Below are positions 7,860 through 43,082 of a stretch of DNA of 64,000 nt, piece after piece. Made by a program: the position numbers and the translations under genes. The notes beneath the pieces were generated by a model that ran no database searches, was not told the origin of the DNA, and was given only the letters and a program-made list of their open reading frames with translations. Location: assembly GCA_001657315.1 (NCBI GenBank), contig LYSV01000022.1, positions 1,309 through 65,308 on the forward strand, read 5' to 3'. Numbering within the stretch: position 1 is the first letter of the stretch; the number at the start of each line of letters is the position of its first letter. This stretch comes from Flammeovirgaceae bacterium BBD 1991-12. GTDB lineage: Bacteria > Bacteroidota > Bacteroidia > Cytophagales > Cyclobacteriaceae.

Positions 7860-7863
7860 TATC

Positions 7864-21900: not shown

Positions 21901-22045
21901 GATCTCTGTACTAAGCCGGAGTAGCCGAAGCCTAAAACTAATGGTTTCTGTTCTAATTCCTTTAGAAGTGATATAGGAGATATGGTATTAAGCCGGTCAA
22001 GGTTTTTCCAATAAGTTACCTGCCTGCCGGAACGTTAGTGCAGGC

Positions 22046-22148
22046 AACTTCCAACTTCCATCTTCCAACTTCCAACTTCCAACTTCCATCTTCCAAACCT
22101 CCAACCTCCAACCTCCAACTTCCAACTTCCATCTTCCAACTTCCAACC
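22046..22148. repeat. heptanucleotide tandem repeat (AACTTCC and variants ATCTTCC/AACCTCC), about 14.5 units
   Basis: Read directly from the sequence: aacttcc aacttcc atcttcc aacttcc aacttcc aacttcc atcttcc aaacctcc aacctcc aacctcc aacttcc aacttcc atcttcc aacttcc aacc. It lies between the divergent CDF and BNR genes. Confidence 0.9.
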
Positions 22149-22216
22149 CCCAGCTTCTAATCACGATATTTACCGGTTTTGCCAGAGACACCATATATTT
22201 GTCAAAAAACGTGTTC

Positions 22217-23557
22217 ATGAGATTTTACCTGTCAGTATTCGCTATCTACGCTTCGGCCTTTTCCGGCTATTCGCAGTTTAAAAATATAGTGCTCGATGTT
22301 CAAAAGGATGGTGAGCGCGCTCCTGCCGAGCCGAGCATAGCGATAAGTCTGAAGGATCGTGATAATATTGTGGGAGCCGCCATTCTGGATAAGGTATATG
22401 TAACCAAAGACGGCGGAGACACATGGTCTGCCAGCAGGCTTGAATCTTCAATGGGAGTGTGGGGCGACCCGGTGGTGATCTCCGATAAAAAAGGTGATTT
22501 TTACTACTTCCATCTTTCGGATCCTACGGGTCGTAACTGGGATAGTGAAGAGATCCTGGACAGGATTGTCTGTCAGAAATCTACCGATGGTGGGGAAACG
22601 TGGAGCGACGGTGCCTCAATTGGGCTTAATCATCCGAAGGATCAGGATAAGGAATGGGCAGTGATCGATCCCAATTCAAACAACATTTACGTAGCATGGA
22701 CCCAGTTTGATGATTATGGCTCCAAAGATCCCGGATGCCAGAGTAACATTCTGCTGTCAAATTCCTCAGGCGGGAAGAAATGGTCAGATCCCATCCGTCT
22801 GAATCAGTTTTCAGGAGACTGTGTGGATGATGACCAGACCACGGAAGGCGCTATGCCGGCTGTAGGTCCCCAGGGCTATTTGTACGTAGTATGGTCCTGG
22901 AATGAAAAGATATACCTCGACCGCTCGTATGACAAAGGCAAAACATGGCTGAGTAACGACATAGAAATAGACGAACAACCCGGAGGATGGTCCTTTTCAA
23001 TACCGGGGATCAACCGGACCAACGGAATGCCGGTGCTGCTGGCAGATAATAGTCCCACGCAATACCGGGGCATGCTCTACCTGAGCTGGGCAGATCAGCG
23101 TAATGGTGAGGACAACACAGATATCTGGTTTATGCGGTCCGCCAATGGGGGTGACCTGTGGTCAGGAGCTACCCGCGTAAATGACGACGATTCCGGCCGG
23201 CATCAGTTCCTGAGCTGGATGGCGCAGGATGCCACCACCGGCTATCTGTACATCCTCTTCTATGACCGGCGCGCCTATGATGACAATCAAACAGATGTAT
23301 ACCTGGCTTATTCCAATAACGGAGGCAGTTCCTTTGAGAATGTTAAGATCAGTGAATCGCCGTTTGTCCCCAGCGAAGAGCACTTTTTTGGCGACTACAC
23401 CAATATTGCAGCACATGAAGGCAGAATAGTGGCCATCTGGACCCGGATGGACGACGGTAAAACCTCGATCATAGCCTCGGTCATTGAGGATGAAGCGCTC
23501 TTTGGAGAAAGAGAAGAAAAAGGCAGGAAAAAGAAGAAAGGCAAGAAAAAAAGCTGA
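22217..23557 (+). CDS. BNR/Asp-box repeat protein (sialidase-fold, exo-alpha-sialidase-like)
   Basis: The ATG at 22217 gives a signal peptide. Asp-box motifs are present (TKDGGDTW, STDGGETW, SYDKGKTW, SANGGDLW, SNNGGSSF). The C-terminal tail is poly-Lys. Confidence 0.75.
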   Translation: MRFYLSVFAIYASAFSGYSQFKNIVLDVQKDGERAPAEPSIAISLKDRDNIVGAAILDKVYVTKDGGDTWSASRLESSMGVWGDPVVISDKKGDFYYFHLSDPTGRNWDSEEILDRIVCQKSTDGGETWSDGASIGLNHPKDQDKEWAVIDPNSNNIYVAWTQFDDYGSKDPGCQSNILLSNSSGGKKWSDPIRLNQFSGDCVDDDQTTEGAMPAVGPQGYLYVVWSWNEKIYLDRSYDKGKTWLSNDIEIDEQPGGWSFSIPGINRTNGMPVLLADNSPTQYRGMLYLSWADQRNGEDNTDIWFMRSANGGDLWSGATRVNDDDSGRHQFLSWMAQDATTGYLYILFYDRRAYDDNQTDVYLAYSNNGGSSFENVKISESPFVPSEEHFFGDYTNIAAHEGRIVAIWTRMDDGKTSIIASVIEDEALFGEREEKGRKKKKGKKKS

Positions 23558-29802: not shown

Positions 29803-30425
29803 GTTTCAATCCTTCTTACTGTGGAAAGTGCTCAGAAAGCGTTGTGTCCGGTAGGTGAGAGATCCGCCGCGTCGTTGTTTCAATCCTTCTTACTGTGGAA
29901 AGTGCTCAGAAAGAGGAAGAACATAAAGAACTATATGATCGTTCTTGGGAGTTTCAATCCTTCTTACTATGGAAAGTGCTCAGAAAGCCGGTGGTGTCAA
30001 AGGCATAATAGACCTTACCGTAATGTTTCAATCCTTCTTACTATGGAAAGTGCTCAGAAAGACAATAATTCCTCTTATTAGCCGTCCCCAAATGAACAGT
30101 TTCAATCCTTCTTACTATGGAAAGTGCTCAGAAAGGTTAATCAGGATTTTCTATGCACAATTCCGGAAAAGTTTCAATCCTTCTTACTATGGAAAGTGCT
30201 CAGAAAGCAATTGGTCATTGTATACTTTCTTAATGCGTTCATAGTTTCAATCCTTCTTACTATGGAAAGTGCTCAGAAAGGGGAATGAATACATGGTTCG
30301 TCAGCATGAGTGGAAGGTTTCAATCCTTCTTACTATGGAAAGTGCTCAGAAAGAGAACGCTTGACTGTTTCCAGGGAAATCTCTTTTTGTTTCAATCCTT
30401 CTTACTATGGAAAGTGCTCAGAAAG
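29803..30425 (-). CRISPR. CRISPR array, 9 repeats of 37 bp and 8 spacers of 35-37 bp
   Basis: The + strand repeat is GTTTCAATCCTTCTTACTATGGAAAGTGCTCAGAAAG, with starts at 29803, 29877, 29951, 30025, 30099, 30171, 30244, 30317 and 30389. The two repeats farthest from cas (29803, 29877) carry ACTGTGG instead of ACTATGG. On the minus strand the repeat ends in ATTGAAAC, which matches the cas orientation and a leader at 30426-30621. Confidence 0.97.
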
Positions 30426-30621
30426 TCGCCAAACCTCTCAATCTTCTTAAGATCAACAGGTTAGCTTGCAGGTACGTCCTCACAAACTCTTTATTGCAAC
30501 ATGTCAAGGAACGTTTATTCAGGTCGTTTTTAACAATTTTCCGAACCTGTAAAAGTCTGACTGTCAATATTCTATGTTCAAAATACAATACCTTCGTTAT
30601 AAATTTGCCCCCGGAAGCCCT
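30426..30621 (-). promoter_or_regulatory. putative CRISPR leader
   Basis: A 196-bp non-coding interval between the cas4 stop and the cas-proximal consensus repeat. The degenerate repeats are at the opposite end of the array. Confidence 0.5.
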
Positions 30622-31197
30622 CTATTTTATGCATATATTCCGGTAGGTACAAGTTAGGCATCTTTTCTTATATCGGGTGGCACGGGGATAATAATTGTCA
30701 GCAATAATTTTACCGATCTCCTTTACGGCCTCCCTTACCATTTCCTTATGATCTGCTGTCACCTCTATCTCTACTACCTTGTGCTGGCTTCTCACGTACA
30801 CCAAAAAGCCCCTTCTTACAGTACATTGAAAGTTTTCTTCTATGAGCCAGGCATAGCAATACAATTGTGTCCTGTATGTCTCATATACCTTGCCCTCATA
30901 GCGGGCAAATTTGTAGTCCAGGGGCGACATGCTCCGGTCTTCCAACGTAAGCACCTCATCTACTCTTCCCCGCAGCCCGTTGTGTGTCAGGTACTGATCT
31001 GTTCGTTTTTCTGTGGCACCTATCCTCTTTCGAAGATAATCCTTGTTCCTTTCCAGTTTTTGGTCGTGAACTTCCCTGCCTCTCATGGCCTTGTAGTCTT
31101 TTTCTTCGTACTGAGGTATGGCAAGCACATATTCGAAAAAGGTGAACCTGGGGCAGTACAGGTACTGTATGATATGGGAAGGGGTAAGGCTGATCAT
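30622..31197 (-). CDS. cas4: CRISPR-associated exonuclease Cas4 (RecB-like, 4-Cys)
   Basis: It has an N-terminal Cys (YCPRFTFFEY), a RecB nuclease core (DEVLTLED..LDYK) and a C-terminal CLTCTYRNIC cluster. The ATG at 31197 is preferred over the track start at 31251. Confidence 0.85.
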   Translation of the reverse strand: MISLTPSHIIQYLYCPRFTFFEYVLAIPQYEEKDYKAMRGREVHDQKLERNKDYLRKRIGATEKRTDQYLTHNGLRGRVDEVLTLEDRSMSPLDYKFARYEGKVYETYRTQLYCYAWLIEENFQCTVRRGFLVYVRSQHKVVEIEVTADHKEMVREAVKEIGKIIADNYYPRATRYKKRCLTCTYRNICIK

Positions 31198-31290
31198 GGT
31201 GTTAATAGTTATTGAGTCGTAAGTGGGCAATCGGCAAATAGCAATCAGCAAAGTACGTTTCTTAGTCTGTTAAACGGAATAGTGCCGTCA

Positions 31291-31581
31291 TTATAAAAAA
31301 AGCTCCCGCACCTCATCGGTGACCATATCCTTGTCGAAGGCCTGCCCCAGCAGGATGGTCTGTCGTAGCTCCTCCTGGCTCATGGGGAAGATGTAGACAG
31401 AATCTTCATCGGGATCCGTCATTTCCTCCAGTTGTAGTGCGAGGGTATCCTTGTCTGAAGGGGTAAGGGTACCCAGAAAGACAGAATACTGGACCCGGTA
31501 AATGCCACTTTGCAGACATGCTTTTGCCGCTTCCCTGCGGCGTTTATCGTCTTTTATGTCGTACATTATCCACACGATCAT
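31291..31581 (-). CDS. cas2: CRISPR-associated endoribonuclease Cas2
   Basis: 96 aa with a ferredoxin-like Cas2 pattern (IVWIMYDI..RVQYSVFLG). It overlaps the cas1 stop by 4 nt. Confidence 0.9.
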   Translation of the reverse strand: MIVWIMYDIKDDKRRREAAKACLQSGIYRVQYSVFLGTLTPSDKDTLALQLEEMTDPDEDSVYIFPMSQEELRQTILLGQAFDKDMVTDEVRELFL

Positions 31582-32570
31582 GGCTTTCCTATTAGTTCGT
31601 TCGCAAAACGGTGAGCGTCCAACTGCATGGCGTGTGCACGCGTAAGATTACGGCCGTTATGACGGATCTTGTCGCCCTCCATATATTCGTTGTACCTGCC
31701 CACCAGCAGGGACTTACCTTCGGTATTCAGGGAATATCCGTTGGTGATCCGGTCGGTATGGGCCTTATTGATCTGCTTTCCGGAAAAAAGCCGGTATACC
31801 ACACGTTCGGCATGTATACGGTACGGTTCTATGAAGTCATAGACAAAGCTCAGTTGGTTGTAGTCGTCCCGGTGCATGAAGCCGAGGTAAGGGTCCAGCC
31901 CCGCGATGATCAGCACTTTTTCCACCCTCCCATAGAGCATACCATAGGCATAGTTCAGAAATGCATTGAAAGGATCAGCAGCCGGCCGGAAGCTGCGCCC
32001 CCTGAAGCAGTACTCTTCCGAAAGCAGGGTGCTTAGTGTTTCGAAATAATATCTCCCTGCCGTACCTTCCAGCCCGCGCAGGGTGTCTGCCACGGCCTGT
32101 ACATCCTTGCCGGAGGTAGCTGCTATTTTGGAGGCCTGGCTGTCCAGCTTATCCACAGCTTTTTGTATTAAGTCTGCCCTGGTTTTTCGGTGCTTTTTCA
32201 GGTCCATCAGGAATTCCCGTTGGTTGGTGATCTTACTGGTGAGCCATTCGAGGATCCATTTCAGCCCGGTTTCGTTGAGACTGGCTTCCAGTTGGGCTTT
32301 ACGGATCTTTGTGGTGCTGCCCAGCTTGCTGTGCCATACCCTGCCGAAGGGTTGACCGTCGTATTCCACAAAGACGATGTCCACGTTGAACATCATGCCC
32401 AGCTTGATGGCATCGGTACTGAGGGCGGCCTGGGTGGCAATGAGGATGGAAGCGACCTTTTGGGCAGCAAAGAGATGTTTCTTTACTTCACCGTCCTTTT
32501 TTAAACGGACCTCGAACATCTTATCCTTTACATGAAGATAGGCGCCGGGGGTGTTCAGGTGGAGTTGCAT
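31578..32570 (-). CDS. cas1: CRISPR-associated endonuclease Cas1
   Basis: 330 aa with the Cas1 layout: an N-terminal beta domain and a C-terminal helical domain with LRGLEGTAGRYYF, NAFLNYAYGML and DPYLGFMH motifs. Confidence 0.95.
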   Translation of the reverse strand: MQLHLNTPGAYLHVKDKMFEVRLKKDGEVKKHLFAAQKVASILIATQAALSTDAIKLGMMFNVDIVFVEYDGQPFGRVWHSKLGSTTKIRKAQLEASLNETGLKWILEWLTSKITNQREFLMDLKKHRKTRADLIQKAVDKLDSQASKIAATSGKDVQAVADTLRGLEGTAGRYYFETLSTLLSEEYCFRGRSFRPAADPFNAFLNYAYGMLYGRVEKVLIIAGLDPYLGFMHRDDYNQLSFVYDFIEPYRIHAERVVYRLFSGKQINKAHTDRITNGYSLNTEGKSLLVGRYNEYMEGDKIRHNGRNLTRAHAMQLDAHRFANELIGKP

Positions 32571-32602: not shown

Positions 32603-33268
32603 TTAGGACACGCGCGCGATGACGCCGTAGCCTCTCGAAACAGATTTGCCAAGCCCGATATAGTCTGGTAGCAGGATGTTGGCAGTGAACCGGCCCGAAA
32701 AGGCAAACATTCGCTGGTCCTTGAACCGGGTTTTCGAGGGGCTCACGGTCAGTTGCACCAGCAGGCGCTGGGCAGACTCGAGGTAAATATCCAATCCTTT
32801 TAAAAAGGACAAGACATTACCGATGAGGATACGCTTGAGGTGTTGTTGTCTGCCGGGTTCGTCTGCTTTCATGTATTCCCGGTAGTTTTTCTGGTTAAGG
32901 CCCATCCAGAGGGTCTTAAAGGCATAGGTATGCAGATCCTGACCTACCTCAGGCTGCCACTGACGGCTCACAATGTTTTTGGTATGTATCGGAATGACCT
33001 CGTCGTCCAGTTTCAGTTCTCTTACTTTGGTGAACAGGCTGGCCAGCAACTCAGCGCCCTCACCGAGGCCAATAAGGCAGGGGATCTTGTCGATCACCTT
33101 GTACTGTACCAGAGGATAGCGGTACCGGAGCGAGCCGTCTTCCAGGTGGTTGTGCAGCAGGGGAGAGTGCTCTCGGAAAAGGGTGCCGAAATAGCCCCGA
33201 AGCTTATGCCCTGCTGAGGGATGGAGACTCAGCTCGGGGAAGGTGATATGGGCAATGGGAATAGTCAT
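32603..33268 (-). CDS. cas6: CRISPR-associated endoribonuclease Cas6
   Basis: A RAMP fold with AGHKLRGYFG near the N-terminus and a C-terminal glycine-rich loop (GLGKSVSRGYG). The ATG at 33268 is used here. The track TTG at 33286 would overlap the upstream stop by 4 nt. Confidence 0.8.
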   Translation of the reverse strand: MTIPIAHITFPELSLHPSAGHKLRGYFGTLFREHSPLLHNHLEDGSLRYRYPLVQYKVIDKIPCLIGLGEGAELLASLFTKVRELKLDDEVIPIHTKNIVSRQWQPEVGQDLHTYAFKTLWMGLNQKNYREYMKADEPGRQQHLKRILIGNVLSFLKGLDIYLESAQRLLVQLTVSPSKTRFKDQRMFAFSGRFTANILLPDYIGLGKSVSRGYGVIARVS

Positions 33269-33282
33269 GGGCAGTACGCTGT

Positions 33283-33939
33283 TCAATTAAAATAGTCGGC
33301 TGTACTGAGTGACCAGTCGCCCGAATAGAACAGTCCTTCCAGCGCTTCATTGATGGCCGTGAGGTCAACAGTATCCGGGTCGTACTTTTCACGGGAAGAA
33401 AGTCCCATCCATTCCCGCATTTCCATGTGCTCCGGATGTTTTTTATTGGTGATGATCTCCAGAAATTCTGCATACCCCCATGGGCCTCCCACATCTTCCG
33501 GCGGGCAGGCTCCACAGGCCTCCACGCAAAGGGGTGACCCTTTCCAGACCTGCAGGTCTTTTTTGGTGGGTTTCTGGAAAGTGATCCTATGCCACCAGTC
33601 GTCGCCGAAGTCATACCAGTACCAGAAGGGCTTTCGTTGTCCTGCCATCTCGAAGCTCTCCTGCAGCATCACATTATCTGCCGGATAGGCATCGAAGTGA
33701 CGTGCGAAGAAATTGTCATCATCATATGGTATGTTGGCCACAAAGGATGGGTCGTACTGTTTGTCCTGGAACTGGAACAAATGAGCAAACTCCCATCCCA
33801 TGGTCACCTGAATGATGAAGTGGAGTTGCAGCATGTTGATATTTTCCGGTACCAACACTCTGCGGTAAATGCTGTGGGGCATGTTCTCAAGGTTGATCTT
33901 TAGCTTGAGGGGAGGTGGGTGGAGAGGGATGGTTTTCAT
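33283..33939 (-). CDS. MM3350-like / plasmid pRiA4b ORF-3-like (PRiA4_ORF3) domain protein, function unknown
   Basis: 218 aa with the family signatures YWYDFGDDWWHRITF and CPPEDVGGPWGY. It lies between cas3 and cas6 on the same strand, with gaps of 42 bp and 15 bp or less. Confidence 0.85.
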   Translation of the reverse strand: MKTIPLHPPPLKLKINLENMPHSIYRRVLVPENINMLQLHFIIQVTMGWEFAHLFQFQDKQYDPSFVANIPYDDDNFFARHFDAYPADNVMLQESFEMAGQRKPFWYWYDFGDDWWHRITFQKPTKKDLQVWKGSPLCVEACGACPPEDVGGPWGYAEFLEIITNKKHPEHMEMREWMGLSSREKYDPDTVDLTAINEALEGLFYSGDWSLSTADYFN

Positions 33940-33981
33940 GGTTTACAAATTATTACTATCAAAAGCTAGAATTCAATTCAT

Positions 33982-36378
33982 CTAAAGAGAAATTGACGAT
34001 AACTTATCATAAACATATCCTTCATTTTTTTGAATGTTTGAACTATCATAACTATAAATTTTAAAATTTTGGTTATTGTCGTCATTACATAAATAAAATC
34101 CATTATAAGGTTCAATAGGCAACTCTAAAGAAGTTTGATTATGTGGTATCGGGACGTTTATCACATAATCATAAAATTTTGACTTTATTGTTGAAAATAA
34201 TTTTCTTCGATCAAAATGAGAAAGAGATTCATCCTCACTGATCCTGACAAACTCGCCCCATAATTCTTTGGCCTCGTTGTTCAAAGCTATGAATAGCGAT
34301 TCAGACTTTATTTCCTCTATTAATTCGAACTCTCCTACTGCTTTAAATTCCAGATTTAGCAAATGATTTAGTAACTGTTTATCTGAATGATCGGACAAAT
34401 CCTTTACTTGTTCAAAATAACTCTCTATAAGAGGAAGGTAGTTCTTCTCCTCAATAACTTCCACATTACCAATAACAAGCTCTGTTTTAATCATCAGGTC
34501 TTTCCCATAAAGCTTGCATGAAGAATTGTACTGTTCATCAATTTTATAAAGAAAAACATCACTTAAGGTGTGTTTTTCAGAATACCTATTTGCCCGTCCG
34601 GCTGCCTGAACAATAGAATCCAGAGGAGCCAATGCACGAAATATAGTGTCCACGGAGATATCTACTCCTGCTTCGATAAGTTGGGTACTTGCAATAATGT
34701 AACGTTTACCAGGGTCCCTCTTTTCGAGTTCGTTTATGATTTTCTTACGTTCATAGGGTGTTATTAATGTGGTCAAATAACGTAATTGGCTTCCATCAGA
34801 GAGCCTTTTTTTAAGTTCCCGAAAACACTTCAATGTGACTTTCTTGGTATTTAGTATAATTAAGATATCCTTTTGAGGGTTCTTTTCAGCATAAACTAAA
34901 ACCTCATCCAGAAAATCCTCCATTGGGATAGATGTATTTGTTTTATTGACAAGTCTTGTTCTATTGAAAAGCGAAAAATATTTCTGGTAATCAGGCACCA
35001 ATTCCTCAATTTCTCTATTAGGGTAAAAAATTAAAGGCTGTGTTGCTGATATCAATACAACATAGCAGTTGAGCTGTTTCGTGATTGTGAAAAATGCTTG
35101 CCGTATTGTCGGCCATAAATTATAGGGAATTTGCTGAACTTCGTCTAAAAGAATGATAGAATTGGAAAGAGAAGAGAACTTCAACAACTTACTCTTGTTA
35201 TTTGTGATTAAGCATTCCAATAATTGAACAAAAGTTGTACAAATTACTGCGCTTTGCCATGTTTCAATTAAGTATTGACTTTCATCTTCATTCCTTATTG
35301 AGTCTTCTCCCTCTTTATATTTTTGTTCGGCAAGATGATGGTGCTTCAATAACATTGTGCTATCCGGGTTATTAAAGACTTTCTCATAAACCTGATAGTT
35401 CTGGTCAATGATACTTGTAAAAGGAATGGCAATTATGATTCTCCCATCTTCTAGTCTCGCTAACGATTTAAGTTTCAGAGCTGCTCCCAGGGATGTAAGT
35501 GTTTTGCCTAATCCGGTGGGTAGAGTTATTGAATAAAATCTTTTCTCTTTGTTAAATTCCTTTTCGAGTTGGTTAAGAACAGAAAAAAAAGATTCGTTTT
35601 TGTATTGATCCAGCTTAGAACTCGGTTGATCGAATCCTTCTAAACGTCTGTATTCATTCAAACATTCGAATCCAGGAAGTGCCAGAGTTGGGAAAGAACC
35701 TTCCAATATAACATCAGCCTTGTCAGAATAAAGAAGAGTACCGAACATCCATAGAAAAAAGTAATAGGCGGATGATTTTTGCGGATCGTCCCAATCACTG
35801 AATTGTCCCAGCTCAAAGTCCAGATATTCGAAATTAGCCTCTTGTTCAAAACCACCACAATTGAACCATGCAATAAAATCGTTCCACTGAACACTAAAAT
35901 CAACCTGAGAGAGACATTCATCGATTATGTCCTGTACATCTGTGGTAGGTATCGAAGCATATTGTTTCTCTAAGTCACTTTCTTTATAGCCTATAGAAAT
36001 CTCTTCTTTAAAATCAAGAAGGTGGCCATGATGCCTTTTTACCACTGTAAAGCATACAGATGCTAAAAAGAAACTTTGCGCTTTTTCCTTGGAAAGGGAT
36101 TCGATAAATTTTTTCACAACGAAGAAAACAAACACAGCCGAAGGAAGGGCATGGTTTTTCAAAGCCGAATGTTCGGCTTGTGGATTTTTCAGATATTCTT
36201 GAAAATATGAGGTGGCTTTACCCAGATCATGAAAAACACCACAGATATATACAAGTGCCTCCTTCGTATTTTGTGAAAATCCAAAATCGGTAGTAGCGGA
36301 TTGTGCAATTTTCAAACAGTTAGAAGCAACTGCTTTTAAATGCTTAATTAAAGGAACTCCTGGGTGAGATTCAATCAT
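33982..36378 (-). CDS. cas3: CRISPR-associated helicase/nuclease Cas3 (HD domain fused to SF2 helicase)
   Basis: 798 aa with an N-terminal HD nuclease (HLKAV.., GVFHDLGK), helicase motif I (PTGLGKT), motif II (LLDEVQ) and a C-terminal helicase lobe (QAAGRANR). Confidence 0.93.
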   Translation of the reverse strand: MIESHPGVPLIKHLKAVASNCLKIAQSATTDFGFSQNTKEALVYICGVFHDLGKATSYFQEYLKNPQAEHSALKNHALPSAVFVFFVVKKFIESLSKEKAQSFFLASVCFTVVKRHHGHLLDFKEEISIGYKESDLEKQYASIPTTDVQDIIDECLSQVDFSVQWNDFIAWFNCGGFEQEANFEYLDFELGQFSDWDDPQKSSAYYFFLWMFGTLLYSDKADVILEGSFPTLALPGFECLNEYRRLEGFDQPSSKLDQYKNESFFSVLNQLEKEFNKEKRFYSITLPTGLGKTLTSLGAALKLKSLARLEDGRIIIAIPFTSIIDQNYQVYEKVFNNPDSTMLLKHHHLAEQKYKEGEDSIRNEDESQYLIETWQSAVICTTFVQLLECLITNNKSKLLKFSSLSNSIILLDEVQQIPYNLWPTIRQAFFTITKQLNCYVVLISATQPLIFYPNREIEELVPDYQKYFSLFNRTRLVNKTNTSIPMEDFLDEVLVYAEKNPQKDILIILNTKKVTLKCFRELKKRLSDGSQLRYLTTLITPYERKKIINELEKRDPGKRYIIASTQLIEAGVDISVDTIFRALAPLDSIVQAAGRANRYSEKHTLSDVFLYKIDEQYNSSCKLYGKDLMIKTELVIGNVEVIEEKNYLPLIESYFEQVKDLSDHSDKQLLNHLLNLEFKAVGEFELIEEIKSESLFIALNNEAKELWGEFVRISEDESLSHFDRRKLFSTIKSKFYDYVINVPIPHNQTSLELPIEPYNGFYLCNDDNNQNFKIYSYDSSNIQKNEGYVYDKLSSISL

Positions 36379-36381
36379 TCC

Positions 36382-37143
36382 TTACAATAGTTGAATATTT
36401 CCTTCACCTTCAACTTCATACGAAGAGTCATTTACTTTTGACATAACTGTTTTGCCTGTAGTTTCTACCAGTATTTCTCCATATCGGGTGATGATCCTGC
36501 TGTGCAGCATTTCAATGGGTAGCGTTTCTACTTGGATCTGGAGTGTTTTCATCGATTTAAAATCTACAGGAGAACTCTCCTTGTTTAAGGAGGAAAGATT
36601 AATTGCAGAATAAAAAGGGAGGAAGTCACGGCTTTCTATTTTCTCTGCCCTCTTCTCACCTACCCAAATGACATTGGCTGTAAATTGACTGAGCCCCAAA
36701 TAGGGATTGAAATGAAAGTGTGTGGTTTTAATCCGCTCAATTAATTCATTCCTTCTCGGATGCTTCCAATCGAGATAAATTCTATACAGTGGTTTTTTTA
36801 GCAGTTCATACTCAATTTGTGTCCTGTTTGTAATGTTAAAAAAGGTTTGTGGAGAGCCCGTATCCAACAAATTAAACCCTACATTGACTTTGTTGACTTT
36901 ATTCAATACACGAACACCAATCCTGGCTTTTTGAGAAGAGAAAACCTGGCGAAGAGACTCATTCCCTTCTCGTATGTTTCCTTTACTATCTTCTCTTTCA
37001 ATACCTAGAATTGCTCCTAATAATCCTGCCACGGCTGTAGGGGTAGGAATGCAATAGGACAGTGGAGAAGTCGTGACATTGAACTTTCTGAAGTGACCGT
37101 ATTCAGCTGAAATGTCAAATACAATAAACGGGCTAGAGTTCAT
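36382..37143 (-). CDS. cas5: CRISPR-associated protein Cas5 (type I-B)
   Basis: 253 aa with the N-terminal Cas5 signature (AEYGHFRKFNVTTSPLSYCIPTPTAVAGLLGAILG). Confidence 0.85.
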   Translation of the reverse strand: MNSSPFIVFDISAEYGHFRKFNVTTSPLSYCIPTPTAVAGLLGAILGIEREDSKGNIREGNESLRQVFSSQKARIGVRVLNKVNKVNVGFNLLDTGSPQTFFNITNRTQIEYELLKKPLYRIYLDWKHPRRNELIERIKTTHFHFNPYLGLSQFTANVIWVGEKRAEKIESRDFLPFYSAINLSSLNKESSPVDFKSMKTLQIQVETLPIEMLHSRIITRYGEILVETTGKTVMSKVNDSSYEVEGEGNIQLL

Positions 37144-38044
37144 TTATAAGGCCATTTTTCAACTCAACGGATTGGTCTCCATCCAGTATTTTAAGCCTGG
37201 GATCTACCTGGACTAATATGTTTTCAATTTTATCGGAATTTTCTCTTAAGGCATTCCTGATTTTTGAAATGTCCAATGCATAATCCTCAGTGCCTCTGAT
37301 TTGAAGATCATTTTTATCTGTTCTCAGTTTTAAAAGCTGTCTTAGTCCACCAATATAGAAGGGTTCCTTGTAGTTGACAATTAGCAGCAGCATAGGTACC
37401 TGTCCAAACTTGGAACGGGAGATCAAATTCTTGGTTCCATTCCATATGCCATCAATTAAAAGATCTTTGTCCTCTTCGGTCATAGAGGTGTATTGAGCCG
37501 CTTTTTCATTTATGATGCCATTAAAGCCAATTAATGCATAGGGTACTTTATATTCTATTCTAAAGGTGGCTTGTCCTTTCTTTTCGCCTGATGCAAAAGC
37601 CCCAGTGCCCTGTTCTGTTACGATATCTACCTCATGAAGTGATTTCCCCATTTGAAATTGGGTAGGACCTGTAAATGTGAATGTATCTCCCTTAATGGGT
37701 AAGATCCCACCAAACACTCTAACATCAATACAGGTTTCCAGAACTTTGTCTTTACTTTCTTTGAATATTTCAGCACGTTGCTTTCCAGAAGTCACAAAAC
37801 TTTTCCCATCTATTTCATACTTTGTTTCTCTTACAAAAATGTCTTTGCCATTAGAGCCGTTAAAACCTTTGTATTCAAACCAATAATCCCTGATAGTTCT
37901 CTTCAGTCTTACGTCTGATACCAATACCTTATTATCTTCGGTATCAAACCTGGGACGATTTTCATTCAATGGATCTCCATTGGGGTTTGCATTTTCTATT
38001 TCATAAAGAAATAGAATTTCTGATCTCGTATTGATTGTATCCAT
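37133..38044 (-). CDS. cas7: CRISPR-associated protein Cas7 (Csh2/Cas7b-type backbone subunit)
   Basis: 303 aa with an N-terminal NANPNGDPLNENRPR motif and VSDVRLKRTIRDYW, typical of the type I-B/I-C Cas7 family. Confidence 0.9.
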   Translation of the reverse strand: MDTINTRSEILFLYEIENANPNGDPLNENRPRFDTEDNKVLVSDVRLKRTIRDYWFEYKGFNGSNGKDIFVRETKYEIDGKSFVTSGKQRAEIFKESKDKVLETCIDVRVFGGILPIKGDTFTFTGPTQFQMGKSLHEVDIVTEQGTGAFASGEKKGQATFRIEYKVPYALIGFNGIINEKAAQYTSMTEEDKDLLIDGIWNGTKNLISRSKFGQVPMLLLIVNYKEPFYIGGLRQLLKLRTDKNDLQIRGTEDYALDISKIRNALRENSDKIENILVQVDPRLKILDGDQSVELKNGLINEL

Positions 38045-38049
38045 AATAT

Positions 38050-39918
38050 TTATGATTGATTCTGTGCTTTCTTCTCTGGTTTAAACTTTCTTCCTAATTC
38101 CAATCCACTCACGAAATAAAATGATATTTCCTGATTAGTCATTTTTTTGACCTCTGTAAAGTTGATACTGAAATTATCGGTTACATACTCCCTAAGTTCT
38201 TGATATTTATACACTGAAAAGTATTGGTTGAGTTTATCAAGTCCCTCCAAGAATATTTTTTGAATATCCTTTGCCGAAAGGTTTAATCCTTTCAATTTTT
38301 TTTCAAACGGAGTGTTTTTTAATTCTATGTACTGCTTGTCCAGTACTAGCCTAATTAAAACTCCAATGCTGAAAATTCCAGCAATATGATTGGCATAGAT
38401 AAATTCTTTATTTCTGTTTAAAAATGATTTGAGATTTTCTAATAACTCATGGCCTACATTTGAACTTTCTTTTTTTTCTTCTTCTGTTTCAGGAATCATA
38501 ATGGTATAATTTGGGGTAATTACAACGTTTAATTTTTCAAGGTAACGAAGGACAAGATGTGCTTTGAGGAGAATCAATGAACTATCTTCAACAAAACCAT
38601 CATCTGTCATTCTCTTATTATGGTTCTTTCTAATAACATCCATAAACCTGCTTAATAAATCTGCCCTATTAAGGTTTTGGCCCTGAAAAACCTTGTAGAT
38701 AATATCATAGAAACTGTCTTCAAAAAATTGTTTGATAAGACCAAAGCCAAATCTCAGGTCCACTTTTTCCTTTGCATTAAAATTATAGTCGGCATTTAAG
38801 TAGAGGGGGTGATTATTGATGGAATTTGGCACTTCAATGAACAAGGTTCTGAACCTGGAAGGAGGGATTTCCTCCAGCATCAACTTAATTTTGATGGCCT
38901 TTGTAGTGGGATTTTCTTCATAAAAAAGTAAATCCAGAGTGAAAAAATTTTCCAATCCTCCAATTTGCTCCATCAGGTAGTCCTCTCTTCTTTCTATGTC
39001 TTTTTTTTTCTCATCGCTACCTGCCTGATATGTCAACTCCTTAAAAAGGTTAAGCGCCTTTTTCAGATTGGCTTTGTCATCGGGTAAAATAGTCTTCGGA
39101 ATGAGAAAATATCTCTTCCCAAAGAAGCTTCTTGATAAATATTTTTGAATATAATTTTTGCCCAACTCAAATTCCAGGGCACAATCTTCGCAAATAGGGT
39201 AGTTAATCCAGTTGTTCTTCTGATTGAAAAAACCACTCACAGTTCCGGGTTTATCAACAGTGGCGTATTTAAAGGGTGAGGCGAAACCATACAATGTATC
39301 TTTTTGGAAGCCACAAATTGAACAAGTGTTGTTCTGCCCTACAGAAGTAACATTGTACTTGTTCTTCTTCCCATCTGTCCCGCTCAGGAGTATTTGTTTT
39401 TGAACGGATTTATAATCGACTAGTAAGCTTTTCCTTCCGTCGGATTCAAGAACAAGTGTAAAGGCACTTTTTTGCTGTTCTTTTTTGTCCAGCCCGGCGT
39501 GAAAAGTGGCCAGATCCTTTTGTATTTGATCTTGATTTTGCTCAAATGCATTTTTCCATTCCTTAAACAGCTTATATTCTTCGGGTATGTCCTTTGCAAT
39601 TTCCAATAATGATGGCCATTGCGTGTTGAGAAGAACCCCGAATTTCTTATCAAGATCGCCAAACTTGGTTGTGAAGGTCACATCTCCTCCTCGAGGTGAT
39701 CCCTTTCTATATCCATATCGTTGATAGTTATCAACGTTTACTTTGTCAATATCTACGTGCTTATAATGAAGTTCTTCCTCTCTTTTCTCAAAGATGATCA
39801 AAGCCATAAAACAAACATTTCCGGGAGTGATCTCCTGGACATAAAGCTGATAAGGCTTTATGTCAGTACGATTGCTTAATTCCAACTTCCCGATTTCAGT
39901 GATTGCTCTATCTTGCAC
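38050..39918 (-). CDS. cas8b: type I-B large subunit Cas8b-like protein
   Basis: 622 aa (GTG start in the track), first gene of the effector operon, upstream of cas7-cas5-cas3. It has a central Cys pair cluster (CSICGF ... CEDCA) as in TM1802/Cas8b-type large subunits. The call rests mainly on position and size. Confidence 0.7.
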   Translation of the reverse strand: MQDRAITEIGKLELSNRTDIKPYQLYVQEITPGNVCFMALIIFEKREEELHYKHVDIDKVNVDNYQRYGYRKGSPRGGDVTFTTKFGDLDKKFGVLLNTQWPSLLEIAKDIPEEYKLFKEWKNAFEQNQDQIQKDLATFHAGLDKKEQQKSAFTLVLESDGRKSLLVDYKSVQKQILLSGTDGKKNKYNVTSVGQNNTCSICGFQKDTLYGFASPFKYATVDKPGTVSGFFNQKNNWINYPICEDCALEFELGKNYIQKYLSRSFFGKRYFLIPKTILPDDKANLKKALNLFKELTYQAGSDEKKKDIERREDYLMEQIGGLENFFTLDLLFYEENPTTKAIKIKLMLEEIPPSRFRTLFIEVPNSINNHPLYLNADYNFNAKEKVDLRFGFGLIKQFFEDSFYDIIYKVFQGQNLNRADLLSRFMDVIRKNHNKRMTDDGFVEDSSLILLKAHLVLRYLEKLNVVITPNYTIMIPETEEEKKESSNVGHELLENLKSFLNRNKEFIYANHIAGIFSIGVLIRLVLDKQYIELKNTPFEKKLKGLNLSAKDIQKIFLEGLDKLNQYFSVYKYQELREYVTDNFSINFTEVKKMTNQEISFYFVSGLELGRKFKPEKKAQNQS

Positions 39919-39931
39919 TCTTTAATTTTTA

Positions 39932-39948
39932 TGTGTAATTTTTGTTTA
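39932..39948. promoter_or_regulatory. putative partial protospacer (target of the crRNA-like element) in the cas8b 5' region
   Basis: TGTGTAATTTTTGTTTA matches 16 of the 17 nt that follow the degenerate repeat at 40046-40062. It lies 14-30 nt upstream of the cas8b start codon. Confidence 0.4.
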
Positions 39949-40029
39949 CGTTTTGATAAATCAAACTTGCATTATTATATTTGATTTTCCAAATCGTTTG
40001 CTCCAGGCCCTAGCCAAAAAGAGGAAACC

Positions 40030-40081
40030 TAAAATGGATTGAAACTGTGTCATTTTTGTTTAGATGACTCCATAAAAAGAA
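40030..40081 (+). ncRNA. candidate crRNA-like regulatory RNA (degenerate repeat 3' half plus psi-spacer; CreR/CreA-like)
   Basis: TAAAATGGATTGAAAC (40030-40045) matches 14/16 of the 3' end of the CRISPR repeat in its transcribed sense. A candidate promoter on the + strand is TTTG (39952-39955), a 20-nt spacer, then TATATTTG (39976-39983). The 3' end is undefined. Confidence 0.4.
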
Positions 40082-40099
40082 GGCTTGTACAAGATTCCA

Positions 40100-40172
40100 A
40101 GCCCTGTAGCTCAATTGGATAGAGCCGACCTAACGAAAGGTCAGGTTCCGGGTTCGAATCCCGGTGAGGCTT
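40100..40172 (+). tRNA. tRNA-like element with non-canonical anticodon arm (possible tRNA pseudogene, Arg-like D arm)
   Basis: It has a canonical D arm (GCTC AATTGGATA GAGC) and T arm (CCGGG TTCGAAT CCCGG). The anticodon arm folds as GACCT/AGGTC with a 6-nt loop AACGAA, or as 4 bp with an 8-nt loop. The acceptor stem has one C-A mismatch and two G-U pairs. Confidence 0.5.
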
Positions 40173-40202
40173 TTTGAAAATTTTTATTAAGACTGTTTTA
40201 AT

Positions 40203-40487
40203 ATGTTCGAGTATGATCATAGTCGGTTAAGCTTAAACGAATTACATAAAAAAGGAATTAGAACTATCAGAGAACTTGAAGAAGTAGTTGAAGGATATTC
40301 ATTTGCTGAAGAATTTTTCTTTGAGGAACTAGGGTACAAAGTGATTCGTTTTACGGGCTTTACCAGGAATTCAAAGGCTCTTAAAATTGCATGTAAAATC
40401 GGAGTTGATGGAAAACTCATCACCCTAGACGCCCGTATACCTACAGTGGAGGAAATAATAGAGGACTTTTGTAAAAAGTGCCAATAA
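40203..40487 (+). CDS. hypothetical protein (94 aa), AT-rich
   Basis: A clean ORF with an ATG start in the AT-rich block next to the cas operon. I could not recognise a family. Confidence 0.5.
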   Translation: MFEYDHSRLSLNELHKKGIRTIRELEEVVEGYSFAEEFFFEELGYKVIRFTGFTRNSKALKIACKIGVDGKLITLDARIPTVEEIIEDFCKKCQ

Positions 40488-40535
40488 TATTTACCAAAGA
40501 TTTTCTGCCCGGTAAATAATTGATATATTTCGAGT

Positions 40536-40700
40536 ATGAAAGGTGTAAAATCTGAAAATAAACATGCCAGCTCCAACCCTTTCCTTGGTGACAAGGCCGA
40601 TGAACTTTGGGAAAAGCTGGATAAGAAGGGCAAGCCAGTCACCAAAGAGCAGCTTCTTAATGAACTAAGGGAGGCGAGATCAAAACATACCAAACTATAG
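40536..40700 (+). CDS. hypothetical small protein (54 aa)
   Basis: An ATG-to-TAG ORF translated by hand (MKGVKSENKHASSNPFLGDKADELWEKLDKKGKPVTKEQLLNELREARSKHTKL). It is below the track length cutoff. It is charged and helical-looking, and no family was recognised. Confidence 0.3.
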   Translation: MKGVKSENKHASSNPFLGDKADELWEKLDKKGKPVTKEQLLNELREARSKHTKL

Positions 40701-41172
40701 CTGGCATCCATACATACCTTTCCCATCCGTGTGCATGCTTTTTTCTTAAAATGTAAGTTCAACGAACAAAGGTTATCTTCTGTATGAATACCGATAGATC
40801 CAAACCACCTGTCACCTACTTCCACATCACCCACACCACCAACTCCATCGAATCCTTCGACGCTAAGGAATTCCGTAAAAGAATAGAAACATCCCGCAGG
40901 GAAAAGCGATCTTCCGGAAAGAAATAGCAACGCGTTTTGATAAAGAGAGAGTGAATGATTTTCTGCCACCGCTGTCACTCTGTAAGCGACCAAAGACAGG
41001 AGAGAAGTAGTGTGCTGGTGCATAAGCCTCAATTCGGGACATGCTACGGATATTATCCGGGGGGAAGCAATTGTCAAATTTCTGTTAATCAGAAAGTTAG
41101 TATATATGACGGATATTCACAACCGTCACAGGGACAATTTGATATGAAAGATATCGGGCCTGTTAAGTAGAT

Positions 41173-41994: not shown

Positions 41995-42804
41995 CTACAT
42001 TAAAGCATCAAGTTTTTTTCTGATCGCCTCATTCATGACCTGTCTGGTATGCGGGTCGTTTTCATGGAGTCTGTTCTTATAGGTCAGCAACCCCTTCTGA
42101 TCCGCAATGAAAATATTAAGCATTCCTATTATTTCTACCCATGGGCTCAGAACATGAAATTTAGAACTTATGAGTGGGACATGACTATCCGGCACGGATG
42201 CCTTAAACTCCCTTAGCTCATAAGGGAATTCGGATGAGATTACCATAAACCTGATCTGGTGGTCTTTTGCAATGGTCTCCAACATATCGAAAACCTTCCT
42301 GAAATCTGAATTTTTAGTGCTGCCCAGTAAAAACAGCGTAACTGTGCCTGTCAGGCTTTTGTCGGAGTATTCATTTCCTTCAATGTCCTTAAGTATAAAG
42401 GAAGGATAGGGTGTATTCATGATCTGCGGAGCTACACGATACAGTTGAGCGAAGATCCCGGTGTCTTTCAGATGACCGTCATAGGTGAATTCGAGATAAG
42501 CAACGGAGTGCTTTTCAACTTCAAACGAAAAGTACCCGTTATGTCGCTGATACAGGATCGGTGTGTCGTGCCTGCGTTTGATCCTGAACCCGAGCTCATT
42601 GGCATTGATCTTATGATCAAAGATCAATACATAGTAACCTTCTGTAAGCGTGTACTGAAATTCCTTTTTTTCCTGGAATTTAGAATAATAGATCCGGCCG
42701 AACTGCTGGAGTGTGTCAGGAGAATTGTTTATGAGATCCTGGGCATTGAGCTGGGTAGCAAACGTCGCCGGAAAAATCAACAGGGGGACGAAGAATTTGG
42801 TCAT
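41995..42804 (-). CDS. hypothetical secreted protein with thioredoxin-fold-like C-terminal half lacking CxxC
   Basis: The ATG at 42804 (MTKFFVPLLIFPATFATQLNAQ) gives a signal peptide. The C-terminal region resembles the TlpA/redoxin layout (FILKDIEGNEY..VTLFLLGST) but has no active-site cysteines. Confidence 0.55.
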   Translation of the reverse strand: MTKFFVPLLIFPATFATQLNAQDLINNSPDTLQQFGRIYYSKFQEKKEFQYTLTEGYYVLIFDHKINANELGFRIKRRHDTPILYQRHNGYFSFEVEKHSVAYLEFTYDGHLKDTGIFAQLYRVAPQIMNTPYPSFILKDIEGNEYSDKSLTGTVTLFLLGSTKNSDFRKVFDMLETIAKDHQIRFMVISSEFPYELREFKASVPDSHVPLISSKFHVLSPWVEIIGMLNIFIADQKGLLTYKNRLHENDPHTRQVMNEAIRKKLDALM

Positions 42805-43082
42805 GGTTTTATGGTTTACAGATGTGGTATCCCTTGTAGAGTCTTTGTCCACTCCGGTGTCCTGGTGGCATAAAAAACCCTTTGCAGTGTTGCCACAAAG
42901 CCCCGAAGACACTAAGGCGCTCAAAGTATGGTTTCATAACTTATCAGCAAAGACGTAATATTTCAGGTGATAAAATCAATAATTCATAAGATGATCAAGA
43001 ACGCTCAAACCATAAACAAACACCCATTTAAACCCAAAACAGATAACACGAAACACTCAAAACAATCAACCACCAACCAATC

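Follow-up and report, generated by a model that had tools for sequence, protein, structure and literature searches.

A gene of the PF07929 family (PRiA4_ORF3, or MM3350-like), lying between cas3 and cas6b of a Bacteroidota type I-B CRISPR-Cas locus, is shown by related genomes to be a recurrent and co-evolving, though dispensable, companion of cas6-cas1-cas2-cas4, and is on that ground a good candidate for a CRISPR accessory factor. The gene (33283-33939) is an ATG-initiated ORF of 218 aa on the minus strand of the window, as we call the whole 64,000-nt stretch of contig LYSV01000022.1 (Flammeovirgaceae bacterium BBD 1991-12) that was analysed. The surrounding locus is of type I-B by its content (cas8b, cas7, cas5, cas3, cas6b, cas1, cas2, cas4 and an array, all on the minus strand) and by matches to the subtype-specific models Cas8b/TM1802, Csh2, Cas5b, Cas3b and Cas6b. 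Upstream of the PF07929 gene stands the AT-rich effector module, in which cas8b (38050-39918; Cas_TM1802, E 1e-90), cas7 (37133-38044; Cas_Cas7, E 2e-59) and cas5 (36382-37143; Cas5b TIGR02592, E 1e-32) together span 36382-39918 with a GC content of 36-39%, and cas3 (33982-36378; HD and helicase domains in Pfam/NCBIfam, PADLOC Cas3b E 7e-215) is the final gene. Downstream follow cas6b (32603-33268; Cas6b_N and Cas6b_C, E 1e-29 to 1e-35, PADLOC Cas6b E 3e-88), cas1 (31578-32570; Pfam Cas_Cas1 E 9e-70, TIGR00287), cas2 (31291-31581; Pfam CRISPR_Cas2 E 4e-22) and cas4 (30622-31251; Pfam Cas_Cas4/PDDEXK_1, TIGR00372 E 2e-34). The CRISPR array (29803-30428; TRF period 73), read directly from the sequence, consists of nine 37-nt repeats, CTTTCTGAGCACTTTCCA(T/C)AGTAAGAAGGATTGAAAC, ending in ATTGAAAC.

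PF07929 is a large family found in many phyla, and a crystal structure has been available since 2006. The original prediction had recognised the family by its two signature motifs, and the profile search bears this out: the protein matches Pfam PF07929 with E 3.5e-49 and 167.3 bits (cut-off 26.6) over profile positions 3-172 of 173. Both motifs occur in the translation (...FWYWYDFGDDWWHRITF... and ...ACPPEDVGGPWGY...), and in their general form, YxYDFGDxWxH and (C)PPEDxGG, they are invariant in 53 subfamily members. The subfamily alignment has 25 invariant positions, which are rich in His, Asp, Glu and Trp. The AF2 model of the protein (pLDDT 93.6, pTM 0.90) found 2I1S (MM3350) as its top Foldseek match (E 1e-13, TM 0.67/0.81) and nothing else significant in the PDB, and 2I1S was also the sole match of a profile search against PDB sequences (E 2e-35). 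No match with E <= 0.001 was obtained in the BFVD structural search, and the PDB searches revealed no similarity to a characterised protein by either fold or sequence. Since the fold and profile matches are to 2I1S alone, a mechanism cannot be drawn from the fold. Domain fusions of distant members, limited to SEC-C and DUF6398, are likewise uninformative on function. Comparison with the orthologs in loci L172 and L173 gives dN/dS of 0.08-0.13, which indicates that the gene is under purifying selection.

The gene is packed into the cas operon much as originally described, with Cas3 encoded upstream and Cas6b downstream on the same strand. The distance from the cas3 stop to the PF07929 ATG is 42 nt, as claimed. 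On the other side the stop codon indeed overlaps a candidate TTG start of cas6b (33286) by 4 nt; the cas6b ATG at 33268, with which both the public gene call (P0121, 221 aa) and the Cas6b_N profile begin, lies 14 nt past the stop and not 15. In every locus compared the PF07929 gene is on the same strand as the cas genes, and in most of them it starts 9-88 nt after cas3 and ends between -4 and 79 nt before cas6b. No terminator was predicted on the coding strand, and co-transcription with the cas genes would be predicted from the gene positions. The compositional junction noticed earlier is real and sharp: from cas8b to cas3 the GC content is 35-39% (GC3 31-37%) and in the 42-nt spacer 24%, while the PF07929 gene has 50.5% (GC3 63%) and cas6b, cas1 and cas2 have 50-54%, so that the gene sits exactly at a step from 35 to 50%.

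The arrangement is not confined to the window. The order cas3-PF07929-cas6b was found in no fewer than ten independent type I-B loci of Bacteroidota, with differing flanks (L006, L008/L009, L094, L096, L103, L107, L172, L173, L175 and L110). Among them are L172 and L173, the nearest relatives of type I-B; absence of the gene from such relatives had been named beforehand as evidence against a CRISPR connection. Because a strong HMM match is combined with the same arrangement recurring in unrelated contigs, the observation goes well beyond chance. In addition, the gene occurs after cas1 in L100/L101, behind an I-B-type array in L105, approximately 260 bp past the array of a type II cas9-cas1-cas2 locus (L013) and, as a distant family member of 35% identity, in the order PF07929-cas1-cas2-array in Parafilimonas (L030). 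A metagenome scan based on PF07929 only gave 14 close relatives that were non-redundant and informative, and 8 of these were linked to CRISPR loci; among 79 distant loci with a length of at least 8 kb there was a single such case (odds ratio 104, p 2.5e-7). This census supports the possibility, raised in the original prediction, of a CRISPR-ancillary factor. The enrichment, of the kind sought in CRISPRicity analyses, holds for the Bacteroidota subfamily only and not for PF07929 as a whole. A genome scan with both motif patterns returned at least 590 relatives, mostly distant, which constitute a background sample rather than a census of close relatives. The neighbours of 60 distant PF07929 loci belong to 84 Pfam families; none of these recurs, and the 25 neighbour families listed include no transposase. 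The sampled family has no conserved PF07929 neighbourhood outside cas loci. The earlier statement that such genes usually stand next to mobile-element genes is not borne out by this sample.

The divergence of the PF07929 protein follows that of the proteins encoded downstream. Its pairwise identities correlate with those of Cas6b, Cas1, Cas2 and Cas4 (r 0.72-0.80, the best being Cas6b with r 0.80) and not with those of Cas3, Cas7 and Cas5 (r -0.11 to -0.27). Mantel tests gave r 0.81 (p 1e-4) against Cas6b, Cas1, Cas2 and Cas4 combined, as expected of co-evolution, and r -0.07 (p 0.67) against Cas3. Between the window and L172, the adaptation block is 83-90% identical (Cas6b 83%, Cas1 88%) and PF07929 71%, while Cas3 is only 32% identical; the window Cas3 is 68% identical to that of L010, a member of effector clade A, and L172 and L173 belong to a different effector clade from the window. 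At the DNA level (blastn), contiguous homology to L172/L173 begins at 33939, the PF07929 ATG, and runs through cas6b, and homology to L010 ends at 34086. The breakpoint of the module swap can accordingly be placed at 33940-34086 (minus strand), in the 3' end of cas3 and the 24%-GC spacer, by the blastn limits and the GC step. Taken together, the alignments show that an L010-type AT-rich effector module replaced the original one directly upstream of the window PF07929 gene, and that PF07929 was inherited with cas6b-cas1-cas2-cas4 while the effector block cas8b-cas7-cas5-cas3 was exchanged. Since the ortholog in L172/L173 is at the same place and homology is contiguous from the ATG into cas6b, the gene was already in the recipient module. 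It is kept down to approximately 50% identity of the adaptation module, and each of the two major clades of the module tree retains it. On account of this co-divergence, the recurrent slot, the selection and the enrichment, we place PF07929 in the cas6/adaptation module.

We give an even chance to the proposal that PF07929, in this Bacteroidota type I-B variant, belongs as an optional accessory to the cas6b-cas1-cas2-cas4 block, which serves crRNA processing and spacer acquisition. By position and analogy it would act on the adaptation or array side and not in interference: it may take part in the acquisition of spacers by Cas1-Cas2-Cas4, or it may couple acquisition to Cas6b. It may be an acidic, soluble enzyme or protein adaptor, with a putative site formed by the invariant residues H40, H53, D110, D113, H117, E148 and D149 of the YDFGDxWxH hairpin and the CPPEDxGG loop, and free-standing copies elsewhere in these chromosomes would use the same activity. 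A DNA-bending protein it probably is not, and an IHF-like role was set aside, as all subfamily members are acidic (pI 4.4-6.3). The more specific idea of a new acquisition-stage Cas-type protein, a metal-dependent enzyme or adaptor for Cas1-Cas2(-Cas4) integration or prespacer handling in type I-B and occasionally type II systems, seems to us unlikely. If an acquisition-stage role were true, a family that is widespread, and whose fold has been solved but is an orphan, would gain its first function; the presence of family members in DDE transposons would be explained by that activity, and the Y1/HUH proteins described below would be functional analogues of PF07929.

The main competing explanation is that a chromosomal PF07929 gene, neutral or selfish, has settled in a permissive, recombination-prone junction between effector and adaptation modules and is carried along by linkage with no role in immunity. 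We regard this as possible, though on balance rather doubtful. In its favour is the variability of the slot. Six loci were picked by way of Cas3 or Cas6b alone, with PF07929 playing no part in the choice; two of them (L172, L175) have the gene, two (L010, L176) have an IS200-like Y1/HUH protein in its place, and in two (L174, L177) cas3 is followed directly by cas6b. PF07929 is thus optional and no core gene of subtype I-B, and its absence or replacement in four of the six tempers its reading as a CRISPR factor. The 222-aa slot protein of L010 was considered as a divergent PF07929 member and rejected, being unrelated and Y1/HUH-like. Furthermore, PIN toxin-antitoxin pairs are inserted at the same intergenic junctions in L008, L096, L100, L103, L105 and L175, from which it follows that cas junctions tolerate passengers. 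Free-standing intact copies (L001, L004, L092 and L012) are nested in the tree among the cas-linked ones, two of them (L001 and L092) in the same chromosomal neighbourhood without cas genes, and the subfamily comparison found no residues specific to the cas-linked copies. Co-divergence itself could mean no more than that the gene and cas6 are physically linked on the same side of a recombination hotspot, and pRiA4_Orf3-like ORFs are known as passengers of Mutator-like transposons of the ISAzba1 group (Guerillot et al., 2014; PMC3942029). Against a passenger, on the other hand, speak the retention of the gene across so divergent modules, always co-oriented and tightly packed, the purifying selection on it, the approximately 100-fold enrichment over the rest of the family, and its presence in four independent cas1-cas2/array arrangements, including the type II locus and the 35%-identical family member. 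A passenger of the transposon kind would have a Mutator-like DDE transposase and element ends beside it; the window gene is flanked by cas genes only, Pfam annotation of the flanking genes of the locus found no transposase or recombinase, and the spacers of 42 and 14 nt are too short for element ends. If the gene is nevertheless a passenger, the cas3/cas6 junction would be a site that collects cargo, namely PF07929, Y1/HUH genes and toxin-antitoxin pairs.

That the protein is a partner of Cas6b, and not of the integrase, in processing pre-crRNA or loading crRNPs is in our opinion quite improbable. The gene does lie directly upstream of cas6b in most loci, the best identity correlation is with Cas6b, and the 4-nt stop/start overlap, present in L172 and possibly in the window, suggests translational coupling. 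Against this, no cas6 intervenes between PF07929 and cas1-cas2 in L030, the gene comes after cas1 in L100, the type II locus L013 is without Cas6, and toxin-antitoxin pairs separate PF07929 from cas6b in L008 and L175. Cas6b also functions without PF07929 in L174 and L177.

Still harder to sustain is a regulator or guard of the locus, acting as a sensor, an addiction-like gene or an anti-CRISPR counter-measure with no direct CRISPR biochemistry. Such roles are frequent for accessory genes at cas junctions, as exemplified by the toxin-antitoxin pairs and by a WYL regulator upstream of cas8b in L177, and the acidity of the protein would also suit them. Nevertheless, a Pfam search detected no HTH or other DNA-binding domain, PADLOC gave no match, the invariant His/Asp/Glu cluster looks enzymatic, and the free-standing copies have varied, non-defence neighbours. 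Occurrence in phages or mobile elements, by which a phage-encoded anti-CRISPR or anti-defence gene would be recognised, was not seen: PHROGs contained no match, and 2.9 million IMG/VR contigs yielded only 30 relatives, all at most 38% identical apart from one 71-residue fragment. Finally, the original suggestion of a hitchhiker left behind when recombination brought the AT-rich effector module and the GC-typical one together fits the position exactly at the compositional junction, but it is hardly conceivable, because the effector module was swapped in upstream of a gene that predates the swap and is intact, conserved, shared with L172/L173 of the other effector clade at the same place, homologous from its ATG into cas6b and divergent in step with the adaptation genes.

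The robust, co-evolving link of PF07929 to cas6b-cas1-cas2-cas4 offers a concrete, testable handle on the function of the family, and it adds a candidate spacer-acquisition accessory for a Bacteroidota type I-B variant that is common but little studied. In addition, the locus illustrates cleanly how effector and adaptation modules are shuffled at a defined breakpoint, which bears on CRISPR subtype classification and on the assignment of accessory genes to modules.

Previous reports are few. A literature search on PF07929, MM3350 and pRiA4 returned the transposon paper and Agrobacterium plasmid papers only, and no publication was found in which PF07929 contributes to any stage of immunity (adaptation, expression or interference). 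In the pMF1 partition paper, pRiA4b comes up solely for VirC1. The gene had been suggested to be an undescribed CRISPR-ancillary factor, and undescribed it is only in part. In the supplement of a Science paper, a "(PRiA4 ORF3)" cluster, UAS-141, is already flagged computationally as a CRISPR-linked auxiliary candidate (Altae-Tran et al., 2023; PMC10910872). The cluster is very small (N_cr/N_eff = 2/3.9 at 30% identity), has a representative gene of approximately 164 aa and a locus at IMG 3300031911, Ga0307412_10000093, 68229-68721, and is given in a supplementary figure only, with neither a function nor an analysis attached. It shares the Pfam family by name with the window protein, and linkage to type I-B cas6/adaptation genes, co-divergence and slot alternation were not found described there.

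Of the known systems, MM3350 of Methanosarcina mazei (PDB 2I1S) is the nearest in structure, with the same family and fold and with the YDFGDxW hairpin and PEDxGG loop common to both proteins. The window protein differs in some 30 additional residues that form a helical region at the C-terminus, in the Cys of its CPPED loop and in its membership of a Bacteroidota subfamily whose genes are embedded in cas operons, whereas MM3350 is a structural-genomics protein with, to our knowledge, no reported CRISPR link. In the ISAzba1-group transposons the same family stands beside a DDE transposase, in some cases together with a serine recombinase, and in the window it stands in a block with the Cas1 integrase; the transposon copies are in phyla other than that of the window (PMC3942029). 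Moreover, unlike those elements, the window locus is without transposase or recombinase and the sampled family without a recurrent mobile-element neighbour. The toxin-antitoxin inserts use the same junctions as PF07929 but at varying ones, while PF07929 is a single gene with a preferred position that tracks the module phylogeny. Cas4, Csn2 and the DnaQ-like domain fused to Cas2 are optional, subtype-specific adaptation accessories with demonstrated biochemical roles. PF07929 is not homologous to them, and the window locus already encodes Cas4; the genomic logic is nevertheless the same, that of small non-core genes that accompany cas1-cas2, co-evolve with them and are often absent from related loci.

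On its minus strand the window has a full type I-B CRISPR-Cas locus, in which an effector module of cas8b (39918-38050), cas7 (38044-37133), cas5 (37143-36382) and cas3 (36378-33982) is followed by the PF07929 ORF of 218 aa (33939-33283), an adaptation block of cas6b (33268-32603), cas1 (32570-31578), cas2 (31581-31291) and cas4 (31251-30622), and a CRISPR array (about 30428-29803) of nine 37-nt repeats with the 3' end ATTGAAAC. As originally predicted, 42 nt separate the cas3 stop from the PF07929 ATG. At the other end of the ORF, the proposed 4-nt overlap with a TTG start is present, and the cas6b ATG lies 14 nt on, not 15; this ATG is the start in the public gene call and the point where the Cas6b_N profile begins. 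The GC step proposed for the PF07929 junction is confirmed by GC and GC3 per gene: the effector genes have 35-39% GC (GC3 31-37%), the cas3-PF07929 spacer 24%, PF07929 50.5% (GC3 63%), and cas6b, cas1 and cas2 50-54%, with 45% for the entire window.

Every test places the protein in the PF07929 (PRiA4_ORF3/MM3350-like) family: the Pfam match covers the whole profile (E 3.5e-49), and both motifs proposed for the translation are there. No match was obtained in PADLOC, NCBIfam or PHROGs. An AlphaFold2 model built from 53 subfamily sequences (pLDDT 93.6, pTM 0.90) has 2I1S as its sole PDB structural match (E 1e-13), the structure of MM3350, which came from structural genomics and has no known function. 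Searching PDB sequences by profile again gave 2I1S only, and neither PDB nor BFVD yielded other significant structural matches. The subfamily has 25 invariant positions, including H40, Q44, W49, H53, Y107, Y109, D110, D113, W115, H117, K123, C145, P146, P147, E148 and D149, which in the model map to one helix and one beta-hairpin with the following loop. Judged from alignment and model, the invariant residues resemble a catalytic or ligand-binding site of a soluble protein. The members are all acidic (pI 4.4-6.3) and Trp-rich, which together with the invariant pattern makes a histone- or IHF-like DNA bender a poor fit. Purifying selection acts on the cas-linked PF07929 genes, with dN/dS values of 0.13 (L172 vs L173), 0.08 (window vs L172) and 0.12 (L096 vs L107; L numbers denote relatives' loci).

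The gene belongs to the adaptation side of the locus. In L172, identities to the window are 71% for PF07929, 83% for Cas6b, 88% for Cas1, 90% for Cas2 and 87% for Cas4, with 32% for Cas3, 32% for Cas7 and 27% for Cas5; in L010, a clade-A effector locus without PF07929, they are 51% (Cas6b), 58% (Cas1), 60% (Cas2), 62% (Cas4), 68% (Cas3), 83% (Cas7) and 70% (Cas5). Across the cas-linked loci, PF07929 identity correlates with that of Cas6b, Cas1, Cas2 and Cas4 (r 0.72-0.80), and no such correlation is seen for Cas3, Cas7 or Cas5; in Mantel tests r was 0.81 (p 1e-4) for the concatenated adaptation block and -0.07 (p 0.67) for Cas3. PF07929-bearing loci occupy both major clades of the adaptation-module tree, over which the two effector clades are scattered, implying several independent module swaps. 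In the window, DNA similarity to L172 and L173 has its start precisely at the ATG of PF07929 (33939) and extends across cas6b (75% over 1.33 kb), and similarity to L010 follows cas3 and ends at 34086. The window locus is thus a recombinant with its breakpoint in the cas3 3' end or the spacer, and PF07929 was already in the recipient cas6/adaptation module, which refutes the suggestion that it is debris of the module joining.

Several side observations concern the effector end. The 1.25 kb between the arginase gene and cas8b (39919-41172) are AT-rich (39% GC), the same composition as the imported effector module, and have no Pfam-matching ORF; a 286-aa ORF (40217-41077) appears spurious. The only recognised content is a tRNA-like gene (40099-40173, plus strand), antisense to the cas operon and about 180-255 nt upstream of the cas8b start (39918; Rfam tRNA 39 bits vs a gathering score of 29, E 2e-5). 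It recurs in L006 (4758-4830), L007 (27-99), L010 (6246-6318), L011 (574-646) and L008 (about 3943-4015), lies upstream of cas8b in 4/4 clade-A effector loci and is absent from the clade-B loci scanned. Its predicted structure has D, anticodon and T arms, and compensatory substitutions occur in the stems of the T and anticodon arms. The anticodon itself is odd and differs between loci: none could be assigned in the window, and it reads CUA in L006 and ACU in L010. The element could be an integration-site remnant or a conserved tRNA-like regulatory element moving with the effector module. In clade-A L006 (4991-6832) and L008 (4146-5987), the gene calls divide cas8b into ORFs of 469 and 139 aa, each matching Cas_TM1802, and in the window it is a single ORF of 622 aa. 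Either the short C-terminal part is a small subunit with its own gene, or a frameshift might account for the split; both are possibilities.

The linkage to cas genes recurs among relatives. The exact order cas8b-cas7-cas5-cas3-PF07929-cas6b-cas1-cas2-cas4 is found in L006 and L008/L009 (Cas3 about 56% identical), where the flanks are unrelated, as well as in L172 (closest Cas6b, 83%) and L173 (closest PF07929, 71%); L172 also has the 4-nt stop/start overlap with cas6b. In a metagenome scan seeded with the PF07929 protein alone, with loci annotated using the Cas proteins of the window and a type-agnostic array finder, 8 of the 14 close relatives (identity at least 45%) that were informative and non-redundant were CRISPR-linked. 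The gene lies between cas3 and cas6b in L094, the L095 group, L096, L103, L107 and L110, after cas1 in L100/L101, and after an I-B-type array in L105. On a Parafilimonas contig (L030, 35% identity) the next genes after it are cas1 (E 4e-88) and cas2, and then comes an array; in L013, from an Owenweeksia MAG, it is found some 260 bp past the array of a cas9-cas1-cas2 locus. In this type II array (9538-9800), the last three or four repeats are 86 nt apart, not 76, and contain within the repeat, just ahead of PF07929, a palindromic insertion, TCTCGGCTAAGCCGAGA. In a sample of 142 distant family members from many phyla (1.5 Mb, with 79 loci of 8 kb or more), L030 alone was CRISPR-linked, giving an enrichment among close vs distant homologs with an odds ratio of 104 (Fisher's exact test, p 2.5e-7). 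The immediate neighbours of 60 distant members matched 84 Pfam families, none recurrent, so the cas linkage is the sole conserved neighbourhood of the family in the sampled loci. The expectation that such genes usually lie near mobile-element genes was not upheld, as no transposase was among the 25 neighbour families listed for these members; a PF07929-type gene is known as a passenger in one Mutator-like transposon group (Guerillot et al., 2014, PMC3942029). IMG/VR has only 30 relatives, all at 38% identity or less except one 71-residue fragment.

Free-standing copies also exist. The first relative examined, a Bacteroidota MAG (L001), suggested a bystander: its 63%-identical homolog lies between Sortilin/BNR and arginase genes, followed by ABC-F, and no cas gene is close by. 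Orthologs of these three flanking genes are present in the window (79, 71 and 86% identity, respectively). L001 (1-7559) has the adjacent order Sortilin-PF07929-Arginase-ABC-F, and the window (23569-46232) has about 16 kb extra between the arginase and ABC-F genes, comprising the CRISPR-Cas locus, a TonB-dependent receptor, a DUF4249 gene and a CarboxypepD_reg-like gene; at the position of the L001 PF07929 it has a 309-aa ORF without annotation (41995-42924). In L092, PF07929 is directly upstream of the ABC-F ortholog. The L001 and L092 copies are candidate relics of a decayed cas locus. Near the start of a BNR/Sortilin-like ORF (22199-23557) and overlapping a small ORF (21997-22218), the window also has a tandem repeat of the heptamer CAACTTC (22045-22147; 14.6 copies, 89% match), which could be slippage-prone. 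In the PF07929 tree, free-standing L001, L004 (adjoining an IS1595 transposase), L092 and L012 are nested among cas-linked copies, the outgroup lineages are free-standing, and no alignment column separates the two kinds. The neighbours of free-standing copies are varied and ordinary (GntR, asparaginase, TonB receptor, ion channel, TetR, AsnC).

The junction itself is variable. Among six loci reached via Cas3 or Cas6b alone, PF07929 is present in two (L172 and L175, the latter also with a PIN toxin-antitoxin pair), the cas3-cas6b gap is empty in two (L174 and L177), and the remaining two have an unrelated small IS200-like Y1/HUH protein with the motif MPNH[FV]H (L010, 12551-13219, 222 aa; L176 of Pontibacter qinzhouensis, 7409-7978, 189 aa). 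The L176 protein is above the Pfam Y1_Tnp threshold, and the two are just distantly related to each other. Given this variability and the nested free-standing copies, PF07929 is optional in these loci and its function is probably not strictly CRISPR-dependent. Small two-gene cassettes, presumably VapBC-like toxin-antitoxin pairs, occur in L008 (10992-11589), L096 (7428-8121), L100 (6347-6962), L103 (11808-12435), L175 (7378-7992) and L105 (579-1056), with a PIN-domain protein as the second gene in those scanned. They occupy cas3/PF07929, PF07929/cas6b, cas3/cas6b, cas6b/cas1 and array/PF07929 junctions, so cas junctions in these type I-B loci are clearly permissive for cargo.

PF07929 is intact and selected, lies packed within the operon and has been passed on together with cas6b-cas1-cas2-cas4, and we give about even chances to any functional link with the adaptation module. 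The gene product would act on the acquisition or array side, because its alternative arrangements all adjoin cas1-cas2 or an array and never effector genes. Given the acidic protein and its enzyme-like invariant patch, we favour an enzyme or adaptor that would modulate Cas1-Cas2(-Cas4) integration or prespacer handling. A role specifically in acquisition is rather unlikely. The main rival, a passenger retained through linkage in a permissive junction, is less likely than not. A partnership with Cas6b is improbable, and a regulatory or guard role very improbable.

The link between PF07929, an orphan fold, and cas genes is solid and can be tested, but its weight is tempered by the dispensability of the gene, its possible passenger status and the inferred nature of the proposed mechanism. 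A literature search found no paper on the association with the type I-B cas6/adaptation module, the co-divergence or the alternation with Y1/HUH proteins; Y1 transposase-like genes have been listed with type III and Cas9 loci, not type I-B (Altae-Tran et al., 2023, PMC10910872). The supplement of the same study also lists 'UAS-141, Auxiliary' as one of 188 CRISPR-linked modules; it is labelled PRiA4 ORF3, the family name of the window gene (N_cr/N_eff = 2/3.9, cluster at 30% identity, representative about 164 aa), and is not discussed in the main text. A 30%-identity cluster taking in a large, mostly unlinked family would score below the cut-off of 0.35 used there (Altae-Tran et al., 2023, PMC10910872), which might explain the low prominence of the Bacteroidota linkage in that study. 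The window locus thus represents a type I-B variant in which an accessory gene recurs, and the family of this gene has been flagged once before as CRISPR-linked.
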